Below, one piece after another: positions 23,779 through 39,044 of a stretch of 64,000 nt of DNA. Both the position numbers and the translations under genes were made by a program. A model generated the notes under the pieces. It had not been told where the DNA came from. It saw nothing but the letters and a program-made list of their open reading frames with translations, and did no database searches. How positions within the stretch are numbered: position 1 is the first letter of the stretch; every line of letters begins with the position of its first letter. This DNA is from Candidatus Sericytochromatia bacterium (GTDB lineage Bacteria > Cyanobacteriota > Sericytochromatia > S15B-MN24 > UBA4093): the NCBI GenBank assembly GCA_036676985.1, contig JAKFBU010000004.1, positions 64,001 to 128,000 of the forward strand, written 5' to 3'.

Positions 23779-25202
23779 CCGAACGAATTGCCCGAGAACG
23801 GGCGACGCTGGGTCTCCTGGAACCACATGGACGGGATGGGGGTCGAGAAGTCGGTCCACTGGCGCGGGCTCTCGGCCGACGGCGCGAGGCCATTGACCGT
23901 CTGGCGCCAGACCTGGGCCTGGGCCTTGGCCAGGTTGGTGCTGAAGCTCTTCAGGTACGCGATCTGGGTGCCCGTCTGGCTCCAGGTGGGGCTGCTCTCG
24001 AAGATGCCGAAGGAGGTCTCCGACCGGTTGAGGAGCTGGCCCGAGCCGGCGTTCTTCGTCACGTCCTGGACGTAGACGCGCTGGTAGCGCTGCGAGTCCG
24101 ATTGGGCGTCCATGACGGGGCCATGCCGGGTGTAGGCGATGGCAAGGCCGTCCGCCCGCCAGTGGGGCTCGAAGGCGTAGTCGCGCGCGTCCGAGAGGTC
24201 CGTGAGCTGCTTGAGGTAGCGCCCGTCGGGGATGTTGAACAGGAAGAGGTTCCAGGCGGCGAGGTTGCTGCCGCTGTTCGTGTCCCCGATGTTGTTCATC
24301 TGGGCGCTGACGACCATGGTCGAGACCCGGTCCTGCTGGAGGCTGGGGTTCCAGGCCGGGAAGCGCTCGTTGACGGCCGTGTTGGTCACGCGGGTGGGCG
24401 TGTTGCCCTCACCCGTCGAGACGCGGTAGATGTCGAAGTTGCCGGCTCGATCCGAGACGAAGGCGAGCTCCTGGGAGCCGGGGCTCCAGCTGGGATCGAG
24501 GTTGAAGCCGGTGTTGTCGCTCGGGTTGACGACGGTCTGGACGCGGCCCCGGGCATCGACCGTGCGGATGGCCGAGACGGGCGAGGTCGGCGAATAGTCC
24601 ACGTAGGCGATCATGCGGCCGTCCGGCGAGACGGTGGGCTGGGCGCCCTTGACTGTGACGCCGTTCTCGTTCTTGAGGGGGCGCGAGTTGGCCACCTGGA
24701 AGCCGTTGTCGTCGGTCGAGACGAGCATGATGTCGCCGTAGCCGTTGTCGTCCGCGTTCTGGACGTAGCTGATGGTGGTGCCGCCCAGGTTGACCGTCAG
24801 GACCTCGCGCTTGGTGTTGGTGCCATCATCGACCATGATGGTGATGCGATCGCCCATGACCAGGTCGCCGCCGCTGTTGGGGGACTTGGAGGTGAAGGGC
24901 GCGTAGTAGGTGAGGGTCTTGGACTCGGTGTAGCGATCCGGGTAGACGCGGCCCCGCTCGGCGACCGCCAGGTAGCGGAGGGTGCGACCCGGCATGGTGC
25001 TGGCCTCGATGGTCAGGCGCGTCGATTGGCCCACGGCCAGGGACGGGTTGTCGAGGTTCGCGGTGACCAGGAAGTCAGTCGGCCAAGGGCAACCGGCAAC
25101 CAGCGAGGCCGTGGCCGCTAGAGCGACGGCGAGGCCCAGTTTGAGTGGCGAACGCTTCGTAACCACCTGGTTGCTCCTTTTCAAGTCCCGATCCCCGATC
25201 AA
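23769..25202 (-). CDS. Lipoprotein with TolB/PD40 beta-propeller repeats
   Basis: Lipobox LVAGC; repeats PTVSPDG, PSWSPGS, PAWNP, PHWRADG, PTWSQTG; start uncertain. Confidence 0.8.
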   Translation of the reverse strand: MIGDRDLKRSNQVVTKRSPLKLGLAVALAATASLVAGCPWPTDFLVTANLDNPSLAVGQSTRLTIEASTMPGRTLRYLAVAERGRVYPDRYTESKTLTYYAPFTSKSPNSGGDLVMGDRITIMVDDGTNTKREVLTVNLGGTTISYVQNADDNGYGDIMLVSTDDNGFQVANSRPLKNENGVTVKGAQPTVSPDGRMIAYVDYSPTSPVSAIRTVDARGRVQTVVNPSDNTGFNLDPSWSPGSQELAFVSDRAGNFDIYRVSTGEGNTPTRVTNTAVNERFPAWNPSLQQDRVSTMVVSAQMNNIGDTNSGSNLAAWNLFLFNIPDGRYLKQLTDLSDARDYAFEPHWRADGLAIAYTRHGPVMDAQSDSQRYQRVYVQDVTKNAGSGQLLNRSETSFGIFESSPTWSQTGTQIAYLKSFSTNLAKAQAQVWRQTVNGLAPSAESPRQWTDFSTPIPSMWFQETQRRPFSGNSFGWH

Positions 25203-25909
25203 CGCGTGGCCGGTATCGTTTTCATACCCACCGGGGGCTGGCCGGAAACCCCACCGATCGGCACTTCGCGCAGCCCCAGGGCTTTTCGGATGCCCTGCAG
25301 GGGGCCGATCTGCTGCGGGGTGAGGGGGTGCGCTCCGCCGAGCTGATGTGCGATCAGCGCCACCTTCGCCGTCTGCTCGACCGTCTCCATGCGGTAGTAG
25401 GCCTCGAAGAGGTCGCGGCCCACGGTGACGACGCCGTGGTGGTCGAGGATGCAGCAGTCGTAAGTGGCGATCAGCGAGCGGATCGAGTCGGCGACCTCGG
25501 GGGTGCCGGGCGTGGCGTAGGCGGCCGTGGGGATGGAGCCCACCGTGAGCACCACCTCGGTGAGGATGGGCTGGGCCAGGGAGACGCCCGCCACCGAGAA
25601 GGCCGTGGCCGTGGGTGGGTGGGCGTGGACGATGGCCATGGCATCCGGGCGCACGGCGTAGACCGCCGCATGCATGCCGAACTCGCTGGAGGGCTTGAGG
25701 GTGCCCGCGAGCTTCTTGCCGTCGAGATCGACCACCACGAGCTGGTCGGGCGTGAGGTAGCCCTTGCAGACGCCCGACGGAGTGGTCAGGAAGCGGTTGG
25801 GACCGACGCGGCAGCTGACGTTGCCGTCCATGGCCACGATGAGCTCGCGCTCGTAGAGGCGGCGGCAGACTTCGATGAGCTGTTTGCGGAGTTCGAATTC
25901 GTTAGGCAT
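25199..25909 (-). CDS. Class II aldolase/adducin family (fuculose-phosphate aldolase-like)
   Basis: DGNVS, TPSG, PSSEFGMH, VHAHP, HHG zinc motifs; ATG 25909 after GGAGG. Confidence 0.9.
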   Translation of the reverse strand: MPNEFELRKQLIEVCRRLYERELIVAMDGNVSCRVGPNRFLTTPSGVCKGYLTPDQLVVVDLDGKKLAGTLKPSSEFGMHAAVYAVRPDAMAIVHAHPPTATAFSVAGVSLAQPILTEVVLTVGSIPTAAYATPGTPEVADSIRSLIATYDCCILDHHGVVTVGRDLFEAYYRMETVEQTAKVALIAHQLGGAHPLTPQQIGPLQGIRKALGLREVPIGGVSGQPPVGMKTIPATR

Positions 25910-26044
25910 GCCTCCATTGTAGGCGACGAGGCGCTTCATAGCTAGATCGGAAGCCTCGGGGCCGGGATCCGGCCGTCTGGTGAGACGGGGGCGTGGATGC
26001 GTGGACCCTCGCGCCGGGTATAGCACCCCTTGGCAGGAGGTTTC

Positions 26045-26965
26045 GTGCTGCAGACGGACATCGTGGCGCGGCTGGCCGAAGAGGCCGATTACCCGCGTCT
26101 TCTCGACATCTTGCGCCAGGGCTGGCCCGGCTCCAACGGCTACCACTCGTCGGTGGCCGACCGGTGGGCCAAGGATTGGCCGGCCATGCTCAAGGACTTC
26201 GACGCCCACGTGCTGGTGGAGGCCGATGGGGTGCTCGTGGGCTTCGCGGGCGTCCAGTTTCACGAGATCTCCTATACGGGCGGGCTCAAACGCGCCCTGG
26301 CGGATCACTTCCTGTCGCAGGCCTGGCCGATGCCGGAGGCGCTGGCCCTGCTCGTGCGGGGCCTCGCACCGTGGGCCCGGGAGCAGGGGGCGGCGCGCCT
26401 GACGTTCAACATGGAGCCCGGCGAGTATCCGGAGCTCGAGGCCTTGCGGGCAGAGGGCATGTTCGCCGAGCGGGCGGCCATGTTCACCTTCGACTTTCCG
26501 GACGAGCCTTTGGATGCGCGGGTGCGGCTCATGCGCCCCGAGGAGCGGCCGCAGGTGGCCGAGATGGGAGCGCGCATCGCGGAGTTCCTGTCGGGGTTCC
26601 GTGGGTCGCTGTGCGCGCTCTCGTTCGAGGAGCTGGTTCGGCTGACGGACAAGGCGTACCAGGACTACGGGGCCACGCGGGAGCATCGGTTCTTCGTGGC
26701 TGAGCGGGACGGGCGGATCGTGGGGTTCTGCTTCACCGTGCGCGAGGCCCCGGACGGGGGGCTGATCTACGACCTCTACGTGGATCCCGCGTACCGGCGG
26801 CAGGGGATCTCGCGGCAGCTGTACGTTCAGGCGTGTTCCTGGCTTCGGCAGGAGGGGGCGCAGTGGCTCACGCTGTCCGTGTTCGTGGATAACGAGCCGG
26901 CGTACAAGGCGTACGAGCAGTGGGGGTTCTTTCCATACTTCGTGGCCTGGGAACTAAACCTTTAA
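26045..26965 (+). CDS. Tandem GNAT acetyltransferase
   Basis: LYVDPAYRRQGIS, NEPAYKAYEQWGF; AGGAGG before GTG. Confidence 0.8.
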   Translation: MLQTDIVARLAEEADYPRLLDILRQGWPGSNGYHSSVADRWAKDWPAMLKDFDAHVLVEADGVLVGFAGVQFHEISYTGGLKRALADHFLSQAWPMPEALALLVRGLAPWAREQGAARLTFNMEPGEYPELEALRAEGMFAERAAMFTFDFPDEPLDARVRLMRPEERPQVAEMGARIAEFLSGFRGSLCALSFEELVRLTDKAYQDYGATREHRFFVAERDGRIVGFCFTVREAPDGGLIYDLYVDPAYRRQGISRQLYVQACSWLRQEGAQWLTLSVFVDNEPAYKAYEQWGFFPYFVAWELNL

Positions 26966-27062: not shown

Positions 27063-27725
27063 CTAGAAGGTCAGCCGCATGCCCGCGATGCTGTTGCCGA
27101 AGAGCGTGGCCTCCAGCCCCCAGAACTTGAAGGCCGCCTCGGGCAAGAGCTGCATCACCGGCAGGTAGATGGTGTGATCCGGCGTCTCGATGGTGAGCGT
27201 CCGGCCGTCATTCGGCGCCCAGCTGGACGAGCCGAACATCCAGGGCAGGCCGCCGTTGCGATCCGCGCCCACGAAGTAGGTGAGGCCGATGGGATAGCGC
27301 AGGATGAACCAGTTGGTGAGCGGCAGGGACAGCAACAGGTAGCCCGTGGCGGCGGCTTGCGAGCCCACCGTGCTCGGGAGGTCGCCCACCCGGGAGTCGG
27401 CCAGCCCATCCACGTGGGAGTTGGGCACGCTCAGACGGCCGCCGATCGCCAGGTTCCAGCCGTCGTGCTTGCCGATCAGGCGCTGGGTGGCGTGGACGCC
27501 AAAGCCGCTCCAGGCGGTGCCGGGGTAGTAGTCGCGGGCGTCGACGCCGATGGTCAGGTGGTCGGTGAGCCCCAGATCGACCGAGAAGGCGCCCGGATCG
27601 ACGCCGATGCCGAGGTGGCCGGCGGTGATGTCGCTGCGAGGGCCGCTGCCGGCGAGGGCCGGCAACGCGCTGCCCAGGAAAAGGGTGGCGGAGAGCAGGG
27701 CTCCGAGGGCGAACTGGCGGCTCAT
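27063..27725 (-). CDS. Exported, probable outer-membrane hypothetical protein
   Basis: Signal peptide (ALPALA), beta-strand pattern, terminal Phe; AAGGAG RBS. Confidence 0.65.
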   Translation of the reverse strand: MSRQFALGALLSATLFLGSALPALAGSGPRSDITAGHLGIGVDPGAFSVDLGLTDHLTIGVDARDYYPGTAWSGFGVHATQRLIGKHDGWNLAIGGRLSVPNSHVDGLADSRVGDLPSTVGSQAAATGYLLLSLPLTNWFILRYPIGLTYFVGADRNGGLPWMFGSSSWAPNDGRTLTIETPDHTIYLPVMQLLPEAAFKFWGLEATLFGNSIAGMRLTF

Positions 27726-27821
27726 CGTGATGCTCCTTTCGATCGAGCGGGGCTGAGTATCACGATAAGAGGGAGCGATCACATGATCGCTCACATGGGA
27801 GGACTAACGGGAAAATGGCTG

Positions 27822-27981: not shown

Positions 27982-28260
27982 CTACGGAACGATCGTCTCG
28001 CCGACCATGTCGACGATGCCGAGCACGGCCGCATGCACGGGGGCCTTGCTGTCCCCGTAAGCCATGAGCGCCGAGCCGCCCTCCTTGACCGCGAGCACCG
28101 TCGCGCCCACGCCCGCCTGGAGCTTGTCCACTGCGAGGAACGGCGCACCCTTCGGCGTCAGATCGTCACCCAGGGGCTGCAACATGAGGACCTTGGCGCC
28201 CTCCAGCCGCTCGTGCTTGAGCGTCGAGTTCATGGTCCCGATGACCTTGGCGAGCAGCAT
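27982..28260 (-). CDS. BMC vertex pentamer (BMC-P, EutN/CcmL family)
   Basis: MLLAKVIGT..STLKHERLEG, AVDKLQAGVG, VLGIVD. Confidence 0.9.
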   Translation of the reverse strand: MLLAKVIGTMNSTLKHERLEGAKVLMLQPLGDDLTPKGAPFLAVDKLQAGVGATVLAVKEGGSALMAYGDSKAPVHAAVLGIVDMVGETIVP

Positions 28261-28263
28261 GGC

Positions 28264-28581
28264 CTAGCCCTCCTTCGCGGCGGTCTGGACGCCGTGCAAC
28301 TCGGCGAGGACCTCCAGGTCCACGTCGTAGCGATCGACGATGCCCACGATGCCCGCATCCACCGGAGCGAAGGCGACGGGCAGGGCCAGGGTCGCCTCGC
28401 GGCCCATCACGCAGAAGCCCAGCTCCCCCACGCCGATGCCGATGGAGTCCGTGGCCACCACCGGGTCGCCCTTGCCCTCACCCTTCTCGTCGAGGGGCTG
28501 GACGATCATGAGCTTGACCCCGTGCAGCGAGGGATCCTTCTCCGTGGCGACCAGGGTGCCGATGACCTTGCCGATGAACAC
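28264..28581 (-). CDS. BMC vertex pentamer (BMC-P, EutN/CcmL family)
   Basis: GKVIGTLVATEK, ATDSIGIGVGE, PVDAGIVGIVD. Confidence 0.92.
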   Translation of the reverse strand: MFIGKVIGTLVATEKDPSLHGVKLMIVQPLDEKGEGKGDPVVATDSIGIGVGELGFCVMGREATLALPVAFAPVDAGIVGIVDRYDVDLEVLAELHGVQTAAKEG

Positions 28582-28594
28582 TGGAGCGCTCCTT

Positions 28595-29149
28595 TTAGAA
28601 CACGAAGTGGTTGAGGTCCTCGTGGGGGTTCGCGATGAGGGCCGTCCGGCACAGCATGGCGCCCGGGATGACGTCGCAGGCGTCCTCCAAGGCAGCCTCC
28701 ATGTCCTCGAGGACCCCGGTGAAGGTGAGGAAGGACTTGCCCCCCAGCCCGAAAGGCGCCCGGATCTCGATCAGCTGGACCGGGGCCGTCTTGACCGCCT
28801 TGTCCGCCGCCGCGATCGCACTCGGCAACGAGAAGGTCTCGATGATGCCCAGGCTGTCGAAGGCCGACACGTCCGCCACGCCGTTCAGCGCGGGGGCGAT
28901 CTGCGGGTCGAGGTTGGGGATGAGGATCTGGTCGAGCAGGGTGTCGGCCGCAAGCTCCACGGCGACCTCGAAGGACTCCTGGACCGAGGCCACGTCTCCC
29001 GAGAAGAGCAATAGGAACTTGCCGGGGCTCGTCGTCTGGGCGCGAACGATGCGAATGGGCGCCTTCTTGGCGATCGCATCGGCCACCACGTAGCCCATGG
29101 CGATGGAGCTGAGTTCGAGCAGGCCTATCGCCGGGTGCTGCATCTCCAT
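28595..29149 (-). CDS. BMC-T shell protein, PduT-like
   Basis: AIGLLELSSIAMG..ADAIAK, SPGKF, second domain LGIIET..AADKAVK, GLGGK. Confidence 0.9.
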   Translation of the reverse strand: MEMQHPAIGLLELSSIAMGYVVADAIAKKAPIRIVRAQTTSPGKFLLLFSGDVASVQESFEVAVELAADTLLDQILIPNLDPQIAPALNGVADVSAFDSLGIIETFSLPSAIAAADKAVKTAPVQLIEIRAPFGLGGKSFLTFTGVLEDMEAALEDACDVIPGAMLCRTALIANPHEDLNHFVF

Positions 29150-30463
29150 TTAGCCGATCTCCTCGATGACGATCGCCTCGCCAAGCGATTTTACCACGCC
29201 CGCGATGCCCGCATATACGGGTGCGGCCTGAGAATCGGGCGCCGGCCGCGCGACCAGGTGGCCCACCGAGACGCGATCGCCCAGTCGAACCGCCGGGACC
29301 AAGGCCAGTTCAGGCCCTTGAGGCAACGAAAGCTCGATCCGGCGCACCCGCACCTCGCTCGTGTCCAAGGGAGCGACATAGTCGACGCCGTAGAGCCCCA
29401 ACCGCTTCGCCAGCCGGCCGAGGGGCACGCGCCATGCCGTCCGCGGGCCGGCTACTTGCCGGCGCGGCAGGACGGCGTGCCCGAGCGAGGCCTGGACCGC
29501 CTTCACTTCCTGGATGAGCGTGCCGGGCGCAAGCTCCGAGGGGCAGGCGTAGTAGGTGCAGAGTTGGCAGCCCGTGCAGTCGAGCGTGCTCGCGAGCACC
29601 GCCACGGGCGCGTCGAACGGCACGTGCAGGGCGCGCATGACCCGGTGCGGCTCCAGGGAGCCGCCCGCCTGATATACGGGGCAGAGGTCCGTGCAGCGCC
29701 GGCAGGAGTGGCAGGCGCTCTGCGCCCGCCGCAGCTCAACGCGCCGGGGCACGGAGCGCCGCCGGACCAGGAGGTGGTCGGTGGGCAGCACGGCGATGGT
29801 TCCCGTCTGGTGCGTCACATGGCCCTCGAAGCCGGTCGCGAGGTGGCCGCGCAGGGGCCCGCCCACCAACAAGGAGGCCGGGCCCTCGAAGGCAGGACCG
29901 CCCGCCGCCTCGACGAGGCTCTCGAAGGGGGTGCCGACCGGAGCCCAGAGGGTCTTCGGCGCGCGCACCGCACCTGTCACGGTGACCAGGCGCCGCGTCA
30001 CCTTCTGGCCGCGGTGGGCGCCCGCCACCTGGTAGAGGCTCATGGCGTTCAGGAGCACGGTGCTCTCGGGGTCGGCCTCGAGCATGCCGAGAAGCGTCAG
30101 GGCGTCGCCCGCCGGATAGAGGGAGGGCAGCTCGTGCACCTGCACGTGGAACTTGGCGAAGCCGTCCGACCCGATGGCCTTTTCGAGGGCCTGCATGGCC
30201 TCGCGGTCCGCGCGCTTGACGGCCACGACGCCGCGCTTGGCGCCGGTCGCCTGCATGGCGAGCTTGAGGCCGAGGACGACCTCGTCGGCATGATGGATCA
30301 GGAGCTGGGTCTCGACCCGCACCAGGGGCTCGGCGGCCGCTGCGTTCACCACGACCAGGTCCGCGGTGCGGGCGAGCATGCGGTGGACGGGCTCCGCGGC
30401 GTCGCCGTCCACGAGGCCCGCCTCGCGAATCTTGTCCAGCAGCGCCTGCGTCAGGGCCGTCAT
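29150..30463 (-). CDS. PduS/RnfC-like Fe-S protein (divergent)
   Basis: YPAGD, SLBB TVTGAV..P.GTP, VGGPLRG, CHSCRRCTDLCP, CTGCQLCTYYACP, C-terminal sandwich domain. Confidence 0.82.
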   Translation of the reverse strand: MTALTQALLDKIREAGLVDGDAAEPVHRMLARTADLVVVNAAAAEPLVRVETQLLIHHADEVVLGLKLAMQATGAKRGVVAVKRADREAMQALEKAIGSDGFAKFHVQVHELPSLYPAGDALTLLGMLEADPESTVLLNAMSLYQVAGAHRGQKVTRRLVTVTGAVRAPKTLWAPVGTPFESLVEAAGGPAFEGPASLLVGGPLRGHLATGFEGHVTHQTGTIAVLPTDHLLVRRRSVPRRVELRRAQSACHSCRRCTDLCPVYQAGGSLEPHRVMRALHVPFDAPVAVLASTLDCTGCQLCTYYACPSELAPGTLIQEVKAVQASLGHAVLPRRQVAGPRTAWRVPLGRLAKRLGLYGVDYVAPLDTSEVRVRRIELSLPQGPELALVPAVRLGDRVSVGHLVARPAPDSQAAPVYAGIAGVVKSLGEAIVIEEIG

Positions 30464-31245
30464 AGGCCGAGTCTCGCCCAGACCGGGCCGAGGGGCTCGG
30501 AGGCCATGCCTACCGACTCGTAGATGCGGCGCGAGGGCGTGTTGCTCACCTGGGTCGTGAGGCCGAGGCTCGTCGCCCCCGCCTGACCGGCCGCGAAGAC
30601 GGCCTCCTGGAAGAGGATCCGGCCCCAGCCCTGCCGCTGGCGGTCGGGGTGCACGCCCACCGCGCCCAGGTGATAGCAGGGGCCCAGGGGCTGCAGGATG
30701 CTGAAGCCGAAGATCCCGTCCGCGTCCTCGGCCACCTTGACGATGGAGAGGCCGTCGAGGTGGACCGTCATCTCGTTGCGGCCGCGCTGGTAGGGGATTG
30801 GAAAGGAGGCATGATCGAGCGCCAGGAGGGCATCGAGATCGCCCATGGTGGCCCGGCGGATGGCCGGATGGTCCGAACCCGCCTGCAGGGGGTCCATGAG
30901 GTAGTAGAGGAGCTCGTCGACGCGCCCGAAGCCGTAGGGCTCGAGCATGTGGCCCTCGGAGCCCTTGACCACGATGGCGGGTCGGGGGCCGACGACGGCC
31001 AGGAGGCGGGGCAGCTCGCGGTCGAGGGCCTCGGCGAGGGCGCTCTTATCCCGGCCTGCCATGTAGAGGTCCACCAGGTGCTCGTGCACCGGCAGCGCCA
31101 CCAGCATGGCGTCGTCGCCGACGTAGGCATGGCCCGGGTGCTCGCGGGCCGTGGCCTCCATCCAGCCGACCGTACGCGGACCGGCCGTCCCCCCCGCATG
31201 CGGGAGCGACTGCCAGCGCTCGGCAAAGGTCACTTGGTTCGCCAT
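30460..31245 (-). CDS. GNAT acetyltransferase inside the BMC operon
   Basis: VGVHPDRQRQGWG, NTPSRRIYESVG; overlaps both neighbours. Confidence 0.8.
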   Translation of the reverse strand: MANQVTFAERWQSLPHAGGTAGPRTVGWMEATAREHPGHAYVGDDAMLVALPVHEHLVDLYMAGRDKSALAEALDRELPRLLAVVGPRPAIVVKGSEGHMLEPYGFGRVDELLYYLMDPLQAGSDHPAIRRATMGDLDALLALDHASFPIPYQRGRNEMTVHLDGLSIVKVAEDADGIFGFSILQPLGPCYHLGAVGVHPDRQRQGWGRILFQEAVFAAGQAGATSLGLTTQVSNTPSRRIYESVGMASEPLGPVWARLGL

Positions 31246-31664
31246 CCGGACGTCACCACGAACTCGATCGTCTCCAGCACCCAGCGGATGAAACCCTTAC
31301 CCTTGGTCTGGGAGACGAGTACCCGCTGCATCTCGACTCCGTCCAACCACGTGCCCCCGCACCGCGGACACACGTCCACCGCCGCCTCGCCCAGCTGCTT
31401 GGGGCGCGCCCGGCGGAGCGCGACGTCACAGGAGGGGCACTGGGCGGCCCGGCTGACCTGGACAGCCGGGATGCGCAGCTGGGTGTAGTGGTTGGCCACG
31501 TACTCCAGCGTGGGCGATTTGAGGAATTCCGCGAGCTCCCCCCGCTGGAACCAATGCCCCATGCACGCGGGGCAACGGTCCACGGCCGTGGCCCCGAGGT
31601 AGGTTCCTTCCAGGTAGGCGTCCTCGCAGCGGGGGCAACGCCCGTGGCTTTCCAGCAAAGGCAT
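31230..31664 (-). CDS. Double zinc-ribbon protein (zf-TFIIB-like)
   Basis: CPRC..VDRCPACMGHWFQRGEL and CPSC..VDVCPRCGGTWLDGVEM. Confidence 0.82.
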   Translation of the reverse strand: MPLLESHGRCPRCEDAYLEGTYLGATAVDRCPACMGHWFQRGELAEFLKSPTLEYVANHYTQLRIPAVQVSRAAQCPSCDVALRRARPKQLGEAAVDVCPRCGGTWLDGVEMQRVLVSQTKGKGFIRWVLETIEFVVTSGWRTK

Positions 31665-31667
31665 CGC

Positions 31668-33137
31668 CTAGACGATCCGGAAGTTGTCCTTCAAGACGCA
31701 GCGACGCAGGCGGGTGAAGTGCCGAGCCGTCGTCAGCCCCTCGCCCGTGGGGTGGGCGATGGTGAAGGAGGTGGGTCCTTCGCCGCCGAGGCCCAGCCCC
31801 GCAAAGGTCGGTCCGTTCTTGATGAAGATCGCCGTGTCCATCTCACGCGCCATCTTGTGCATGTGATCGACGTTCTTGGAGTGGATGGTGGCCGTGTGGC
31901 CGTAGCCGTGCTCGACCTCCTTGGCCAGCTCGATCGCCTCTTCGATGTCGCGCACCCGCACCAGGGGGATGACGGGCATGAGCTGCTCGGTCCACACCAG
32001 GGGATGGTTGCGGTTGACCTCGCAGAGCACCATCCGGCAGGTCGACGGCGCGTCCACGCCGATCTCCTTGAGGATGACGTGCGCGTCCTTGCCGACCCAG
32101 TCCTTGTTGATGTCGCTCTCGACGCCCGGGCCGTTCTGCTTGACGAGGATGACCTTCATCAGGCGCTCGGTCTGGGTTGAGGTGAGCTCGTAGGCGCCGC
32201 AGCGCTTGAGCTCTTCCTTGAGGCGATCGGCGATCGAGGCGACCGCGATGATCTCCTTCTCGGCGATGCAGACGATGTTGTTGTCGAGGGTCGAGCCCAG
32301 GTAGATGTTCTTGGCGGCCTGCGGGATGTCGGCCGTCTCGTCGACGACCGCCGGCGGGTTGCCGGGGCCGGCGCAGATGGCCTTCTTGCCCGAGTTCATG
32401 GCGGCCTTGACCACGCCGGGGCCGCCCGTGACCACCAGGAGCTTGATGTCCTTGTGCTTCATCAGGGCCGACGAGACCTCGATGGAGGGCTCGGCCACCG
32501 AGCAGACCAGGTTCTTGGGGCCGCCGACCGACTGGATGGCCTGGTTGAACAGGCTGATGGCGAAGTTCGTGACGCCCTTGGCCTTGGGGTGCGGCCCGAA
32601 GACCACCGAGTTGCCCGCGGCGATCATGCCGATCGAGTTGCAGATGATGGTCTCCGAGGGGTTGGTCGTGGGGGCGATCGCCCCGATGACGCCCCAAGGG
32701 GCCCGCTCGACGAGCGTCATGCCGTCGTCGCCCGTCCAGACGATGGGGTCGAGGTCCTCGACGCCCGGGGTCTTGGTGGCGACCAGGCGGTTCTTGTTGA
32801 GCTTGTCCTCGTAGCGGCCGAGGCCCGTCTCGTCGACGGCCATGCGCGCGAGGGTCTCGAGGTTGGCGAGCACCGCCGCCCGCATGGCGGCGATCATCTG
32901 CTTGCGCTTCTCGAGCGACATCTCGACCAGCTGGCGCTGGGCGACCTTGGCGGCCGCGACGGCGGCGTCGAGATCCGGGAAGATGCCGTCGCCCGAGGGC
33001 GCGTAGGCCACGGGGCGGGCGCCCTCGAGGCGCGCGAGGGGCTGGGGGACGCTCGGCTTGACGACGCCCTCAGCGTGCAGCCGGCCCATGACCTGGCTGA
33101 CGAGGGAGTTGATCTGGTCCTGATCGATGGCCATCAC
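31668..33137 (-). CDS. eutE: CoA-acylating aldehyde dehydrogenase (EutE/PduP family) with N-terminal encapsulation peptide
   Basis: IDQDQINSLVSQVM, PTTNPSET, VTGGPGVV, DNNIVCIAEKE, EQLMP, GEGLTTAR. Confidence 0.93.
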   Translation of the reverse strand: MMAIDQDQINSLVSQVMGRLHAEGVVKPSVPQPLARLEGARPVAYAPSGDGIFPDLDAAVAAAKVAQRQLVEMSLEKRKQMIAAMRAAVLANLETLARMAVDETGLGRYEDKLNKNRLVATKTPGVEDLDPIVWTGDDGMTLVERAPWGVIGAIAPTTNPSETIICNSIGMIAAGNSVVFGPHPKAKGVTNFAISLFNQAIQSVGGPKNLVCSVAEPSIEVSSALMKHKDIKLLVVTGGPGVVKAAMNSGKKAICAGPGNPPAVVDETADIPQAAKNIYLGSTLDNNIVCIAEKEIIAVASIADRLKEELKRCGAYELTSTQTERLMKVILVKQNGPGVESDINKDWVGKDAHVILKEIGVDAPSTCRMVLCEVNRNHPLVWTEQLMPVIPLVRVRDIEEAIELAKEVEHGYGHTATIHSKNVDHMHKMAREMDTAIFIKNGPTFAGLGLGGEGPTSFTIAHPTGEGLTTARHFTRLRRCVLKDNFRIV

Positions 33138-33141
33138 TCAC

Positions 33142-33456
33142 CTACCATTCGCCAACGGCAATGGGCGTGTCCTTGGTGTACTTGGTCACTCCCTCGACGT
33201 CCCAGGTGTCGACGATGGCCATGATGGTCGCGTCGATGGGCTTGCCCTCGGTGGCGTAGGTCTGGCGAGCCGAGCTTCCCGAGGCGTACAGGACGACCTC
33301 GCCGATGCCCGCTCCGACCGAGTCGGCCGCGATGACGTAGCCGCCGGATTCCTTGCCTTCGACGTTCAGCTGGCGGACCACCATGAGCTTGGTACCGATG
33401 AGCTTCTCGTCCTTCTGGTCGGCGACGACGGTGCCGACGATCTTGCCAATGAGCAT
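33142..33456 (-). CDS. BMC vertex pentamer (BMC-P, EutN/CcmL family)
   Basis: GKIVGTVVADQK, AADSVGAGIGE, GSSAR, PIDATIMAIVD. Confidence 0.93.
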   Translation of the reverse strand: MLIGKIVGTVVADQKDEKLIGTKLMVVRQLNVEGKESGGYVIAADSVGAGIGEVVLYASGSSARQTYATEGKPIDATIMAIVDTWDVEGVTKYTKDTPIAVGEW

Positions 33457-33555
33457 GCGACGCTCCTTCGCGACGGAAATGGGATCAGGCCACCCCCGCC
33501 CCGCCCGTCCCCGTGTGGGAAGGGCTTGCGGGGGTGACCTGCCTCAGGCTCCGGC

Positions 33556-33870
33556 TTAGTAGTTGACCTGGGCGACGGGGTCCACGGTGGAGACGCGGCG
33601 GCCCAGGGGCAGCACGGTGTCGACGTTGGCGTGCGGACGGGCGATGACGTGGACGGCGACCACCTCGCCGACCTTCTCGGCGGCACGGGCGCCCGCGTCG
33701 GTGGCGGCCTTCACGGCGGCCACGTCGCCACGGACAATCGCGGTCACAAAGCCGCCGCCGGTCTGGACCATCTGGACCAGCTCGACCTTGGCGGCCTTGA
33801 CCATCGCGTCAGCGGCCTCGACCATCGCCGCGAAGCTCTTGCACTCGATCATTCCCAACGCTTCAGCCAT
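33556..33870 (-). CDS. BMC-H hexameric shell protein (EutM/PduA-like)
   Basis: [39 protein letters not shown]. Confidence 0.95.
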
Positions 33871-33935
33871 GGGTGATTACTCTCCTCTTAAGACGGACCG
33901 GAACGCCCGGCCCTGCTTGTGCCTACTGGGTGTCC

Positions 33936-34574
33936 CTACTTCTTGGCCAGCTCTTCGACGCCGGCGAGGCCTTCGAGGGCCTTGGTGGCCGCCTCGGCGG
34001 CGACCATGACGTCGGCCTCTTCGCCCGCGAGGTACACGCGGCCGAAGGCGCCGGCGGCCCGGATGATGACGATGTTGATGTTGGCGGCCTTCTCGGCCTC
34101 ATTGGCGACGAGCGTCGCGTAGGCGGCCGGGTAGCACTCCATGATGAAGAGCGTCTGTCCGCCGATGAGCATCATGCCCTTGCGGCCCGAGCGGTTGATG
34201 AGCATGGCCTGGTGATCGTCCACGTGGCGGATGACCTGGCTGCTGATGATCTTGGGCTTGAGGCGATCGTGCTCGGTCTTGCCGATGGCGTTGAGGATGG
34301 CCTCACCGGCGGCGCGCACGTCGGCCTGCGAGTCGCTGTGCAGCTCGAGCATGCCGTACTGGCGCTCGACGATCTGCTCGGCGGGCGTCACGTGCGTGGC
34401 CTTGAGAGCAACGTCCATCAGGCGGTTGATCTCCATGCCGGGGGCGATCTCGACGTAGAGGGCGGCCTGGCCCGCGACGGGCAGGTAGCCAGCGGCCGTG
34501 GACGCCGAGTAGGCGGCGAACTGCGGCTGCAGATTGTCGAGGAAGACGTAGGTGCGAAGCTGGACGTTCTCCAT
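33936..34574 (-). CDS. BMC-T shell protein, permuted stacking type (CcmP/CsoS1D-like)
   Basis: LRTYVFLDNLQPQ, EIAPG, VERQYGMLE, ANEAEKAA, GAFGRVYLAG. Confidence 0.88.
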   Translation of the reverse strand: MENVQLRTYVFLDNLQPQFAAYSASTAAGYLPVAGQAALYVEIAPGMEINRLMDVALKATHVTPAEQIVERQYGMLELHSDSQADVRAAGEAILNAIGKTEHDRLKPKIISSQVIRHVDDHQAMLINRSGRKGMMLIGGQTLFIMECYPAAYATLVANEAEKAANINIVIIRAAGAFGRVYLAGEEADVMVAAEAATKALEGLAGVEELAKK

Positions 34575-34604
34575 CGTTACTCCTTATGGCCCCGCGGGAC
34601 CGTG

Positions 34605-35777
34605 CTAGTAGCCCGAGGTGCTGGACTTGCCGCCGCCGACGATGCTCACCGAGGCCGAGGCCCCGATGCGGGTCGCCCCGGCCTTGATCATCTCCAGGGC
34701 GCCCTTGCGATCGCGCACGCCGCCCGACGCCTTGACGCCGAGCTCGGGGCCGACCGTCGCGCGCATGAGGGCGATGTCGTAGGCGGTGGCGCCGCCCTTC
34801 GAGAAGCCCGTGGACGTCTTGACGAAGGTCGCACCCGCCGACTTGGAGAGCGCGCAGGCCGTGACCTTCTCTTCGTCGGTCAGGAGGCAGGTCTCGAGGA
34901 TGACCTTGCTGACGAGCCCGCCGCAGGCCTGGACGACCGCGCGGATGTCGGCCTCGACGAGGTCGTAGCGCTTGCTCTTGAGAGCACCGATGTTGAGGAC
35001 CATGTCGATCTCGGTGGCGCCGTCGGCGATCGCCTGCTTGGTCTCGAAGGCCTTGACCTCGGACGGCGTGGCGCCGAGCGGGAAGCCCACGACGGTGCAG
35101 ACCTTGACGTCCGTGCCCTTGAGCAGCTTGGCGGCGAGCGCCACGTTCGAGGGGTTGACGCAGACGGACATGAAGTGGTGCTTGGCGGCCTCCTGGCAGA
35201 GCTTGGTGATCTCGGCCTCGGTGGCGTCCGCCTTGAGCAGCGTGTGGTCGATCATGCGGGCGAGGGCGTGGTTCTCGGCGGCAACGCCGGCCGAGCCGCC
35301 CGTCAGCTCGCCGAGGGAGCCCTGGCGCAGGCCGAGGGCCGTGAGCTTGTCGCTCAACTCGTCGAAGGAGAGGACCCGCTTGCCCTTGGCGAGCGCGGCC
35401 TTGACCACGCGGGCGGCAAAAGCGTCCGAGTCCTTGGCGAGGAGCTGGTTGGCCAGGGAACGTGGCAGGCTCGGCAGGACCACCACGTCGGCCGCACCCA
35501 CCTCGGCCTCCAGGGATCCCTTGAGGGAGGCCTCGCTGACGATGCGGGCGCCCTGGGAGGCGATGTTGCCCGTGGCGAGCACGGCCTCGGCCCAGCGGGG
35601 CACGGCCACGACCACCTCGTTGCCGCGGCTGGTCAGGGCGCTGACGGCGTCCGAGAAGGCGCGGGTGTCTTCGGTGTAGACGAGCCAGACGAGGCGAGGG
35701 GAGAGCGACGGGGTTGCGGCCCCCGTGGCGGCCGTAACCTGGCGGGTGACTTGATCGACGAGAGCCGTAAGGTCCAT
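34605..35777 (-). CDS. deoC: Deoxyribose-phosphate aldolase with N-terminal encapsulation-like peptide and extra domain
   Basis: [44 protein letters not shown] after about 165 extra residues. Confidence 0.93.
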
Positions 35778-35789
35778 CCGTTCCTCTTC

Positions 35790-36245
35790 TTAGGAGTTCA
35801 GCCGATAGAGCTGGGATTCGAGGTCCTGGATCTTCGAGATCCGGCGGGCATGACGCGGGCAGGGCTGGGTGTCGAGCCAGGTCTTGACGATTTCCTTGGC
35901 GAGCCCGATCCCGATGATGCGGGAGCCCAGGGTCAGGACGTTGGCGTGGTTGTGCTCGCGGGCATTCCGGGCGGCGAAGAGATCGTTGCAGAGGCTGGCC
36001 CGGATGCCGGGCACCTTGTTGGCGACGATCGACGAGCCGATCCCGGCGCCGTCCACGATGATGCCGACCGGCGCCTCCCCTTTGGCGACGGTCGCGGCGA
36101 CGAGGAAGGCGAAATCCGGGTAGTCGACGGATTCGGTGGAATGAGTCCCGAGATCAACGGGCGTGTGGCCAAGCTCCGAGAGATAGGCGAGGAGCTGCTG
36201 CTTGAGCTCGTAACCGCCGTGGTCGCTGCCGATGACGATCTTCAT
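35790..36245 (-). CDS. rpiB: Ribose-5-phosphate isomerase B family
   Basis: IGSDHGG, VDYPD, DGAGIGS, ANKVPGIRA, AREHNHANVL, RHARRI. Confidence 0.93.
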   Translation of the reverse strand: MKIVIGSDHGGYELKQQLLAYLSELGHTPVDLGTHSTESVDYPDFAFLVAATVAKGEAPVGIIVDGAGIGSSIVANKVPGIRASLCNDLFAARNAREHNHANVLTLGSRIIGIGLAKEIVKTWLDTQPCPRHARRISKIQDLESQLYRLNS

Positions 36246-36509: not shown

Positions 36510-37616
36510 ATGTTCAATCCGTGCGATCTGGCTTTCACGCGGAGTCCGCAGCCTCCTAGCCTGCGCGAGGGCGGAGAGCTCGTCGTCGAGACGGCGCCGG
36601 TCGCACCGCCGCTCGACGTGCCCGGGGCGGGGACCCTGCCGCGGCCGCCTTTGCCGGGCCCGGCGGACGTGGTCCTGCCCATGGCCAACCCGCTCGCGGC
36701 GGCGGCCGGCAACCTCGACCACATGCGCGGCGAGCCGGATGCCGCTGCGGAGCTGGAGCGGGCGCTGCCGGCCATGGCCCAGCGGGTGCTCGACCTCATC
36801 GCCAAGAGCGGTCCGGCGCTCGACGGGGCGCTGTCGGCCATGGCGGGCAAGCCTCTTGAAGAAGGCCGTTATGAGGCTCAGGGCGGGCGCTCGGGCCGCG
36901 CGTCCTTGGGGGACGACCTTGCCGGGGCGCAGCGCCTCGCGCGCTCTAGGCCCTTGCCGCCGCCGTTGCCGCCCCAGGCGCTCGCCCCCATGCAGCCCGT
37001 CCTGGATCTGGTGCCGCCCCTCGAGCATGTGACCATCGACCTGGACAAAGTCGCTCAGCTGCCGGCGCCGTCGGCCCCGAAGGCCCTCGTGGCGGCCCGG
37101 GCGGAGGCCCTCGCGATCCCCTGGACGTCCCGGGAAGGTGAGCGCCTGCGCCAGGAGGCGCCGACGACCGTGACGCCCGCCCAGGTCCAGGTGGCCTTGC
37201 TCCAGATCCCGGAGCTCGAGAAGTTCGTGGGCGGCGCCCTGCAGTTGGCGAGCGATGGTGCCTTCAAGGGCTTCCCGGCCGCCAGCCGGGAGGGCTTTCA
37301 GCGCCTGGCGGCCATGACGCAGGTCGGCAAGCCGACCCCGGTGGGAACCTACCTCGTCGCGCTGCGCGACGTCTATCAGTCCTACAAGGTGGACTTCTAC
37401 AGCCTGCTGCGGGCGCGGCGCGCGCTCCTCGACCGGCGGGATCCGGCATCGCTCATCCCCTTGCTCACCGAAGAGGAGCTGGAGGACTACCTGTGGCGCA
37501 AGTACGGCGAGGCCCTGAGGATCCGCCTGTGGCGCCTGCTGCGGACCTCCGTCCGAGAGGAGGACGTGCCCTCGTTCGACGAGGAGCAGGAGTCGGTTCG
37601 GGGTAAAGAGAACTAG
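36510..37616 (+). CDS. Hypothetical Pro/Ala-rich protein
   Basis: 368 aa ORF after AAGGAG; helical C-terminal region; no family recognised. Confidence 0.65.
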   Translation: MFNPCDLAFTRSPQPPSLREGGELVVETAPVAPPLDVPGAGTLPRPPLPGPADVVLPMANPLAAAAGNLDHMRGEPDAAAELERALPAMAQRVLDLIAKSGPALDGALSAMAGKPLEEGRYEAQGGRSGRASLGDDLAGAQRLARSRPLPPPLPPQALAPMQPVLDLVPPLEHVTIDLDKVAQLPAPSAPKALVAARAEALAIPWTSREGERLRQEAPTTVTPAQVQVALLQIPELEKFVGGALQLASDGAFKGFPAASREGFQRLAAMTQVGKPTPVGTYLVALRDVYQSYKVDFYSLLRARRALLDRRDPASLIPLLTEEELEDYLWRKYGEALRIRLWRLLRTSVREEDVPSFDEEQESVRGKEN

Positions 37617-37682
37617 GCCTCGCCTCGGGGCACGCGTGGCCGGTTCCACCATCGCACGGGCAGCGGCATGCCAGGAGGACGA

Positions 37683-39044
37683 ATGGCAGGACCCATCGGC
37701 AATCAATCGAGTATCCGGCCGGTCGCGCCGCGTCCCTCGCTGCCTTCCGCCGTGCCACAGATGCCGCCCCAGGGGCCTGAGCCGGCACTTGGGCGCGATC
37801 AGAACCAGGTGAAGGCCGTACCGTCGCCCCAGGCCTTGCCGGATCTGCGGGATAGTGTCGGCCAGGTCTCGGCGGACGACTTCCTCGCCATGGATCTCGG
37901 GCCCGCTGAGCCGACGCCGGCGGACGTGCGCCGAGAGTTCGACAGCTTCCGACATGACGCGGATCCGATCAACGTCAACAAGTTCACGCGGATCGAGCGG
38001 GACGCCGTTCCCCTCGACGAGTTGAACGGCGAGTGGGACGAGGTGGCCACGGACCTCATCCGGACCAACGAGGGTCTGGCGCAGGCGGCTTACGAGAAGC
38101 TCTCGCCGAAGCAGCAGGATCAGTACAAGGGTCTGGACAGCTTCTTGAGCGGCGATCCCTCGGCTCGGCTGTCTCTCCAGGTCATGCTCATCGAGGGAAC
38201 GCTGACGGGCGGTTCCCGTTCGACGAGCGGCGGGACCCTGCTCGACTCGCTGCATGACGTCTCCACCAGGCCCACGCTGGAAGGCCTGGATGCCAAAGGG
38301 CTCGTGAGCGACCTCGTCCAGGAGGTCTCCCTGCCGGCCTCCATTGCCCAGGAAAGCTACGGGACCTGCACCGTCACGACCGTCCAGGTCAAGCTGGCCA
38401 GGGAGAACCCGGCGGAATACGCCCGTTTGGTCGGCGGCCTCGCGTCTCCGGAGGGGAAGGTCAACCTGGCCAACGGCGACGCCGTCGTGCGGGATCCCGG
38501 CTCCGAGGAGCCTCAGTACGACAAGGCCAAGCGCATGATGCCCGACGGCAAGATCGTCGAGGTCGATGTCCTGGATGAGCGGACGGCCTCCTCGCGCCTC
38601 TTCCAGGCCGCTTTCATGGAGTATGGCCTGGGCGAGGGCGTGGACTACGATCCGGTGAAGGACGAGGCGACCGATCCGACGCAGATGGGGGCCGGCCTCG
38701 TCCACCGGACCATGGCGGGCCTGTCGGGCGCCAAGGTCGACACCCTGCTCGCCCCGAGCTACCGGGGCTATGCCGACGACGGGGCCAAGCAGGTGGACAC
38801 GGGTGCCCTCGTGAACCGTCTTGCCGACGAGACCGGCAAGGGCAACTCGGTGCCGGTGGGGATTGCCTGGGGCGAGGCCGACGAGAGCGGGCGCTTCCAT
38901 GGCTTCCATGCCGTCGACGTCTCGAAGGTCGACGGGGATCGCGTCTACTTCAACAACCCGTGGGGCAAGGAAGAGAGCATGACGCGCGAGGAGTTCGCCC
39001 AGCGCGTGCGGTTCGCCCAGGTCGGCTCGTTCGACGCCAAGTAG
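37683..39044 (+). CDS. Putative papain-fold cysteine peptidase
   Basis: QESYGTC (Cys), GFHAV (His), FNNPWG (Asn); AGGAGG RBS; low-complexity N-terminus. Confidence 0.65.
   Translation: MAGPIGNQSSIRPVAPRPSLPSAVPQMPPQGPEPALGRDQNQVKAVPSPQALPDLRDSVGQVSADDFLAMDLGPAEPTPADVRREFDSFRHDADPINVNKFTRIERDAVPLDELNGEWDEVATDLIRTNEGLAQAAYEKLSPKQQDQYKGLDSFLSGDPSARLSLQVMLIEGTLTGGSRSTSGGTLLDSLHDVSTRPTLEGLDAKGLVSDLVQEVSLPASIAQESYGTCTVTTVQVKLARENPAEYARLVGGLASPEGKVNLANGDAVVRDPGSEEPQYDKAKRMMPDGKIVEVDVLDERTASSRLFQAAFMEYGLGEGVDYDPVKDEATDPTQMGAGLVHRTMAGLSGAKVDTLLAPSYRGYADDGAKQVDTGALVNRLADETGKGNSVPVGIAWGEADESGRFHGFHAVDVSKVDGDRVYFNNPWGKEESMTREEFAQRVRFAQVGSFDAK

Follow-up and report, generated by a model that had tools for sequence, protein, structure and literature searches.

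A probable SPU3-type microcompartment operon with a seemingly disabled PduS/BMC-Ts pair in what looks like a non-photosynthetic relative of cyanobacteria

The stretch analysed here, 64,000 nucleotides on contig C4 of a Candidatus Sericytochromatia genome (hereafter the window), carries what appears to be a sugar-phosphate-utilising (SPU) bacterial microcompartment (BMC) operon at positions 27982-36245 of the minus strand (Table 1). By coordinates and translations it comprises 12 co-oriented, intact open reading frames (ORFs), in the order RpiB, deoxyribose-5-phosphate aldolase (DERA), CcmP-like BMC-Tdp, BMC-H, BMC-P, acylating aldehyde dehydrogenase (AldDH), double Zn-ribbon protein, GNAT acetyltransferase, PduS-like protein, PduT-like BMC-Ts and two further BMC-P. 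Gaps between neighbouring genes, read from the RpiB end, are 12, 30, 65, 99, 4, 3, -16, -4, 0, 13 and 3 nt, the negative values marking overlaps of 16 nt (Zn-ribbon/GNAT) and 4 nt (GNAT/PduS-like), and the 12 genes probably form one tightly packed, co-translated unit. An earlier, sequence-only reading of this DNA had described 12 tightly packed, co-oriented genes with a stacking BMC-T among them, and ORF limits, Pfam domains and the CcmP match of the trimer all agree with it. A scan for promoter-like sites found none, and terminator-like sites occurred at chance level (4 found vs. 4.4 expected), both scans being uninformative in DNA of 67% G+C.

The assembly spans 4.68 Mb in 79 contigs with an estimated completeness of 100%. 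A genome-wide search did not find the photosynthetic reaction-centre gene (PF00124), and the host looks like a non-photosynthetic relative of cyanobacteria. The operon supplies the sole hexamer gene of the genome (genome-wide, PF00936 gives five domain matches altogether) and, with three EutN_CcmL genes, the BMC-P triplet of SPU loci.

Table 1. Genes of the microcompartment operon and its neighbours, with positions in the window.
Feature	Length (aa)	Position	Strand	Domains and best matches
RpiB paralogue	151	35790-36245	-	Pfam LacAB_rpiB 5e-52; catalytic Cys position is Asp
DERA	390	34605-35777	-	Pfam DeoC 175-373; helix ~3-17; flavoprotein-like domain ~29-160
BMC-Tdp, CcmP-like stacking trimer	212	33936-34574	-	Pfam BMC; phmmer CcmP 4ht5 1e-73, HO-5816 2e-67
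BMC-H	104	33556-33870	-	Pfam BMC 3e-27
BMC-P number 1	104	33142-33456	-	Pfam EutN_CcmL 2e-29
Acylating AldDH	489	31668-33137	-	Pfam Aldedh 1e-40; NCBIfam NF011927
Double Zn-ribbon protein	144	31230-31664	-	Pfam Zn_ribbon_TFIIB x2
GNAT acetyltransferase	261	30460-31245	-	Pfam Acetyltransf_1; GNAT fold 142-247
PduS/MNdh-like protein	437	29150-30463	-	Pfam Complex1_51K, SLBB, Fer4 (4Fe-4S dicluster), weak RnfC_N
PduT-like BMC-Ts	184	28595-29149	-	two Pfam BMC domains; phmmer to 3nwg and PduT-type chains ~1e-36
BMC-P number 2	105	28264-28581	-	Pfam EutN_CcmL 1e-26
BMC-P number 3	92	27982-28260	-	Pfam EutN_CcmL 3e-22
Signal-peptide-like start, between operon and class II aldolase	243	27063-27794	-	no Pfam match
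Second GNAT, between operon and class II aldolase	311	26030-26965	+	kept in shell-less genomes G004 and G007
Class II aldolase, start codon uncertain		25199-25939	-	Pfam Aldolase_II 4e-54; C-terminal tail ~45 residues
PD40-repeat gene, downstream of operon		23769-25202		
Large ORF upstream of operon		36510-37616	+	no Pfam match
Large ORF upstream of operon		37668-39044	+	no Pfam match

Previous work has defined seven SPU subtypes, with phosphotransacylase (PTAC) in almost all SPU1, SPU4 and SPU7 loci, a PduS homologue that could recycle NAD+ in every subtype except SPU6, and, typically, a BMC-Tdp as possible acetyl-CoA exit where an encapsulated PTAC is missing (PMC11585597). The window operon has the hallmarks of the class: a DeoC-type aldolase (pfam01791) with an N-terminal extension lies among the shell genes, an RpiB-type isomerase (pfam02502), which is a second and divergent copy, adjoins it, and the acylating AldDH has a terminal extension. 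As in SPU3, a CcmP-like BMC-Tdp is present and PTAC is not in the locus. This combination of RpiB, DERA and AldDH bears out the SPU-type metabolosome that had been proposed from sequence alone, and we consider it highly probable that the subtype is SPU3, an assignment made by gene inventory and gene order rather than by the shell-protein colour clades of the original classification.

The closest published comparison is the SPU3 locus of “Cyanobacteria bacterium UBA8530” (DD435_11690-11745), which is listed together with an SPU2 locus in a Melainabacteria metagenome-assembled genome (MAG) in PMC11585597 (Dataset S1) and is detailed in the datasets of Sutter 2021 (PMC8217296) and PMC11626177. 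Its order—class II aldolase, P (92 aa), P (93 aa), pduT-like Ts (182 aa), PduS, AldDH, P (100 aa), H (99 aa), ccmP-like Tdp (207 aa), DERA—is, insertions aside, the window order read from the opposite end, and 10 of the 12 window genes plus the downstream aldolase match SPU3. Specifically, both loci have a CcmP-like Tdp, one H and a P, then Ts, P and P, with AldDH and PduS between P and Ts; in both, DERA adjoins the Tdp, a class II aldolase follows the last P, and PTAC and alcohol dehydrogenase (ADH) are not in the locus. However, the window has Zn-ribbon and GNAT genes inserted between AldDH and the PduS-like gene, its aldolase is split from the operon by an exported-looking 243-aa protein and an opposite-strand GNAT, and the GGAGFP, NGAECEP and CPGK motifs of the UBA8530 MNdh/Ts proteins are degraded in it.

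Three parts of the sequence-only reading find no support against this background. It had treated the inventory as non-canonical for want of PTAC and ADH, and the lineage as one in which the organelle was possibly uncharted, yet the missing locus PTAC and ADH are already described for SPU2, SPU3, SPU5 and SPU6 (PMC11585597), and the UBA8530 and Melainabacteria loci are on record. It had also suggested a subtype like that of Haliangium ochraceum (HO), whereas the window DERA and RpiB lie inside the operon, and the pfam01791 aldolase of some HO-bearing genomes lies away from the HO locus (Sutter 2021, PMC8217296). The SPU type and the absence of PTAC and ADH from some SPU subtypes are thus in print, and on that score the locus is ordinary. 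What sets it apart is the insertion of two genes, the degradation of the MNdh/Ts pair, the flavoprotein-like domain of DERA and the neighbouring series of genomes that lost the shell.

The operon RpiB reads “iivDGaG” where solved RpiB 3he8 reads “iviCGtG,” with His retained, and a second RpiB on contig C41 (51% identity to the operon copy) keeps the Cys. An Asp for the catalytic Cys is likewise reported in SPU ribose-5-phosphate isomerases (RPIs; PMC11585597, supplement). AldDH scores 678.8 bits against the PduP/EutE-type model NF011927 (cut-off 403), and its Pfam domain begins at residue 55, leaving an N-terminal extension of ~50 residues that, judged by eye, looks like an encapsulation peptide.

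To place the locus among its kin, DNA around DERA was compared from 20 related genomes plus a Stenomitos-labelled contig, with 18 window proteins placed by tblastn. The operon order is shared by 10/10 shell-bearing loci inspected. Locus L012, in a same-genus MAG labelled Stenomitos sp. (8.9-kb contig), has the same genes in the same order at 75–98% protein identity, and nine loci (L109-L116 and L121) that belong to other families within the order or class read RpiB-DERA-Tdp-H-P-AldDH-(PduS)-Ts-P-P, although RpiB was not seen on L109, which reaches its contig end. The PduS gene occurs in L109, L111, L112 and L113; L110, L114, L115 and L116 lack it, and none was seen in L121. In 7 of the 9 shell-bearing loci outside the genus the operon is followed by a class II aldolase; over the shell-bearing relatives' loci as a whole, the aldolase stands immediately behind the last BMC-P in 8 of 10. 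A PD40-repeat gene comes behind the aldolase in two loci (L109 and L112), and in L111 it adjoins the last BMC-P. Because aldolase and PD40 genes also lie downstream in the window, separated from the operon by the 243-aa protein and the second GNAT, the aldolase appears to belong to the ancestral SPU3 locus and the window operon to sit at its ancestral place. One locus (L114:9242-9520, minus strand, genome G017) has an extra BMC-H gene between DERA and Tdp.

All operon genes compared are under purifying selection against L012 (dN/dS 0.05–0.33). Synonymous divergence from L012 is uneven across 27982-35777, with dS of 0.11–0.27 from DERA to AldDH and 0.30–0.59 from the Zn-ribbon gene to the last BMC-P, which might reflect recombination between strains.

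The PduS-like protein and its BMC-Ts partner depart from the published state. PduS has been renamed MNdh; in published MNdh loci its gene adjoins that of a BMC-Ts in 97% of cases, and this BMC-Ts always has a CP(G/S)K Fe-S pore motif (PMC11626177). In the SI table of that paper the SPU3 row is “70, 6%, 4, 4, 4, 0.” The window resembles that module in that a four-domain PduS-like protein directly adjoins a PduT-like BMC-Ts in an AldDH locus without ADH, but the phmmer alignments give its BMC-Ts pore motif as SPGK, i.e., with Ser at the position of the Fe-S cysteine of PduT. The name “PduT-like” given earlier holds for the overall match and not for the pore cysteine, which is missing. Ser stands at this position in 9/10 relatives as well, and Cys in L109 only. 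The PduS-like protein is altered as well: the stretches “GGA(G/T)FPTH” and “NGAECEP” of RnfC (9eri/7zc6), the UBA8530 MNdh and L109 read “GDAAEPVH” and “NAAAAEP” in the window, and the same motif erosion is seen in L012, L111, L112 and L113. We take these stretches to be the ones that bind FMN and NADH. No other operon protein is less similar to L012 than the PduS-like protein (75% identity), and none has a higher dN/dS (0.33). From these motifs we infer that the pair is seemingly disabled and that the published electron-export route is unavailable in the window genus. The suggestion that this organelle handles CoA and NAD+ differently, made initially from missing genes, survives in this other form.

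Enzymes that could complete the pathway lie elsewhere in the genome. As first noted from the sequence, the window has no PduL, Pta, AckA or ADH, which holds for PF06130, PF01515, PF00871 and PF00465 (all matches off C4; zinc ADH and other ADH families were not searched). The genome-wide search for satellites that had been advised finds the single matches to PduL-type PTAC (PF06130) and acetate kinase (PF00871) on contig C39, where ackA ends 20 nt upstream of pduL (L002:2702-4602, minus strand), a PTA_PTB domain (PF01515) on C23, and four Fe-ADH matches (PF00465) on C61, C1, C19 and C63, the two best with ordinary N-termini. Since the alignment to solved PduL begins at residue 5 and ackA ends so close upstream, PduL appears to have no N-terminal targeting peptide, and no encapsulation peptide was recognised on PTAC, AckA or Fe-ADH elsewhere in the genome. 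The sequence-only reading had set against its own proposal an exact match to a described SPU subtype accompanied by peptide-bearing PTAC and ADH satellites; the genome shows the near-match to SPU3 described above and the satellites without the peptides.

The ackA-pduL pair is patchily distributed. Across 41 related genomes, the window genome included (29 shell-bearing, 12 shell-less), PduL occurs in three, all shell-bearing and always in the same adjacent pair, and the family's eight shell-less members lack the pair altogether. The pair may act as a functional satellite in the cytosol. The genome also has deoB, whose phosphopentomutase supplies deoxyribose 5-phosphate. A second, lone CcmP-like BMC-Tdp gene (208 aa, 58% identity to the operon copy) lies on contig C25 (L011:8706-9332, minus strand) between genes for 4-alpha-glucanotransferase and UDP-GlcNAc 2-epimerase, and many shell-bearing relatives likewise have a second, weak BMC match on another contig.

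The DERA core gives 7e-85 against the solved DERA 6d33, and the motifs that surround the catalytic Asp and Lys line up between the two. The sequence-only reading called it a deoC fusion, and the extra N-terminal part is indeed there, resolved here as a helix plus a flavoprotein-like domain. Specifically, alignment of 15 N-extensions from the class gives a conserved helix and an alpha/beta domain of ~130 residues; an AF2 model of residues 1–175 built from this alignment has a pLDDT of 74.9, and over the whole domain Foldseek matches it best to flavoproteins such as UbiX and PPC decarboxylase (TM 0.5–0.63). A profile of the extension searched against 1.84 billion representatives returned 134 proteins at E up to 0.001, from which 40 long and 12 short (258–283 aa) matches were scanned with Pfam: 39/40 long matches carry a C-terminal DeoC and 4/40 reach PF02441 above cut-off, and 11/12 short ones carry PF02441. 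Aligned by hhalign with BMC-type PF02441 proteins, the extension gives 99.2% probability (E 1.4e-19) over 171 columns, helix included. We identify it as a putative targeting helix followed by a predicted, degenerate PF02441 flavoprotein-like domain.

The free-standing counterparts of this domain are BMC-associated PF02441 proteins of ~260 aa with an N-terminal helix, to which the first ~170 DERA residues align, helix included; they differ from the window domain in that it is fused to an aldolase. Because their conserved glycine-rich “TGG.IG” and “PVLTQNT” stretches read “YTEDTRA” and “LPSLPRS” in the window DERA, flavin binding by its N-domain is doubtful. A degenerate RpiB, as in the published SPU3 RPI-DERA chimera, was considered and rejected, since BLASTP against the operon RpiB gives E 0.52 and the fold and profile searches give PF02441. 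The SPU DERA extension has been described as a helix plus two strands (PMC11585597), and a literature search found no description of a PF02441-like domain on SPU DERA.

The SPU6 DERA-RPI pair of Chloroflexi (PMC11585597) offers a further comparison. As in the window, its DERA keeps the catalytic motifs, its RPI has Asp for the catalytic Cys and the two genes are adjacent; however, its DERA extension is ~70 residues long with a four-Cys stretch whereas that of the window is ~170 residues long without it, and SPU6 has no PduS whereas the window has a PduS-like gene. The four-Cys stretch (C-x2-C-x4/5-C-x3-C) was also observed, followed by a conserved “GA.R” helix, between the flavoprotein-like domain and the barrel in L111-L113, L117-L119, L121 and L123. 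It is present in the published SPU6 DERA construct and missing from the window genus and from family f3.

Which of these genes go with the shell can be read from close relatives that have none. PF00936 occurs in 29 of the 41 genomes and, within the window family, in the window's own genus only (1/9 relatives); the shell-less family loci (L104-L108) read DERA-ZnR-GNAT...GNAT2-aldolase-PD40 or DERA-ZnR...aldolase-PD40. BMC-type AldDH above cut-off is found in 28/41 genomes and in 0/12 shell-less ones. Most shell-bearing genomes have two RpiB copies, and all eight shell-less family genomes have one full copy (one of them, G009, with an extra 30-residue RpiB fragment). A tblastn search with DERA residues 1–160 matched none of the 12 shell-less genomes and 21 of the 28 shell-bearing relatives, with four more recovered by alignment; visual inspection of six shell-less loci puts the start of the DERA frame a few residues at most from the barrel motif, and a 247-aa ORF of G004 has its DeoC domain from residue 31 on. 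Because the DERA N-extension is kept only where the shell is kept, it probably serves packaging. On this sequence comparison the sister genera appear to form a natural shell-loss series, in which, as part of the tentative “open-cofactor” reading set out below, the RpiB paralogue, the DERA flavoprotein-like domain and AldDH may be shell-dependent and the DERA core, Zn-ribbon, GNAT and class II aldolase may not.

The same series raises the question of whether the window operon is itself a decaying remnant, heading for loss as in the sister genera, from which no organelle is made. Of the nine same-family genomes, eight no longer have shell, AldDH or PduS, and the cofactor sites of the window PduS and Ts proteins are eroded. 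However, all 12 window ORFs are intact, their order is kept in the same-genus genome under the selective constraint given above, the DERA catalytic motifs align with those of a solved enzyme and the satellite Tdp has been kept as well, so that we regard a remnant as scarcely credible.

The inserted Zn-ribbon and GNAT genes follow a different distribution. Zn-ribbon orthologues occur in 9/9 same-family genomes and GNAT orthologues in 6/9, and outside the family searches for either gave only weak paralogue-level matches and no orthologues. At every same-family or metagenome locus inspected (L104-L108, L129) they adjoin DERA; the metagenome contigs yielded one locus, in which a short DERA is followed by ZnR and GNAT, that was found with a GNAT alignment query and not with a single-protein query. 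None of the nine shell-bearing loci outside the genus has the two genes, only same-genus L012 carrying them.

One might still propose that GNAT, alone or together with the Zn-ribbon protein, works in the lumen and frees CoA by acetyl transfer to an acceptor, replacing PTAC and defining a new biochemical subtype. The two genes do lie between AldDH and PduS with junctions that overlap or span 3 nt, GNAT keeps its acetyl-CoA-type motif region under purifying selection (dN/dS 0.24), and the locus has no PTAC that would do this work. Yet the orthologues beside DERA persist in same-family genomes without shell, BMC-type AldDH or PduS, as in the metagenome locus, and 0/9 shell-bearing loci outside the genus have them. 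The GNAT N-terminus (T6, F7, R10 and W11 invariant) is conserved across shell-bearing and shell-less genomes alike and so is not a shell-specific targeting peptide, and NCBIfam and the protein Atlas give generic GNAT matches only, with no substrate indicated. We therefore give the luminal-enzyme proposal little credence. Because they are kept beside DERA in sister genera that lost the shell, Zn-ribbon and GNAT are probably an insertion peculiar to this family and linked with DERA rather than with the shell, and an organelle-specific role is unlikely.

On the published SPU model, deoxyribose 5-phosphate would enter the shell, where the encapsulated acylating AldDH would convert acetaldehyde to acetyl-CoA and NADH. 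Neither PTAC nor ADH appears to be targeted to the lumen, which corresponds to the described SPU3 state. With PduS FMN/NADH motifs degraded and the BMC-Ts Fe-S cysteine replaced by Ser, the electron-export pair of the window genus could not work as published. The most likely path for the exchange of acetyl-CoA/CoA and NADH/NAD+ would in that case lead through the gated pores of the CcmP-like BMC-Tdp trimers (one locus gene, one satellite), and a cytosolic AckA-PduL pair would turn acetyl-CoA into acetate and ATP. A bolder reading, less likely than not, is an “open-cofactor” metabolosome, i.e., one that may have kept its aldehyde-trapping shell without a working internal recycling of CoA or NAD+; MNdh/BMC-Ts would serve it as no more than a structural or Fe-S piece, and the gated CcmP-like trimers would carry both cofactor pairs across the shell. 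As part of the same possible reading, the surrounding order may record a passage from canonical to degraded module, then PduS loss and finally organelle loss.

Several observations weigh against the SPU3 assignment or the exchange of cofactors through the shell. No start codon lies between the RpiB ORF and the preceding stop, which leaves no room for an N-terminal extension; the SPU3 RPI is tabulated as “EP Nterm” (PMC11585597, Table S2), a tabulated tendency that does not define the subtype. Encapsulation, substrate and cofactor routes all derive from the published SPU model and from sequence, and the assembly has an estimated contamination of 5.09%. The relatives are kin and mostly MAGs, such that the counts are to be read as a pattern rather than as a statistical test. 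The restriction of ackA-pduL to shell-bearing genomes could make the pair a true functional satellite, perhaps entering the shell by an unrecognised route. Finally, the “disabled” reading of PduS depends on the assignment of these motifs to FMN and NADH, and both 4Fe-4S motifs are invariant in six sequences (C251, C254, C257, C261, C296, C299, C302 and C307), which, with purifying selection at dN/dS 0.33, argues that the PduS-like protein does something.

That something could be its published task, if an altered cofactor site or another donor let the PduS-like/BMC-Ts pair still recycle NAD+ or move electrons across the shell. Beyond the conserved clusters and the non-neutral dN/dS, the two genes still adjoin one another, the arrangement reported for 97% of MNdh loci (PMC11626177). 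However, the FMN/NADH stretches are degraded in the window, L012, L111, L112 and L113, the pore Cys of CPGK is Ser in the window and nearly all relatives, and four loci of shared order dropped PduS and kept the rest. We consider a working pair unlikely, and cofactor exchange through CcmP-like trimers more probable.

The window locus breaks the reported rule that MNdh is always paired with a BMC-Ts that has the cysteine, and as such bears on how NAD+ is recycled. The close relatives with and without shell show which locus genes go with it, and support the published view of the RpiB paralogue and the DERA extension of SPU loci as working for the organelle rather than in general metabolism. By this analysis the long DERA extension consists of a helix and a PF02441-like domain found again in no fewer than 39 protein clusters.

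Upstream of the operon, a homologue of the ORF at 36510-37616 sits upstream of DERA in the shell-less genome G005.

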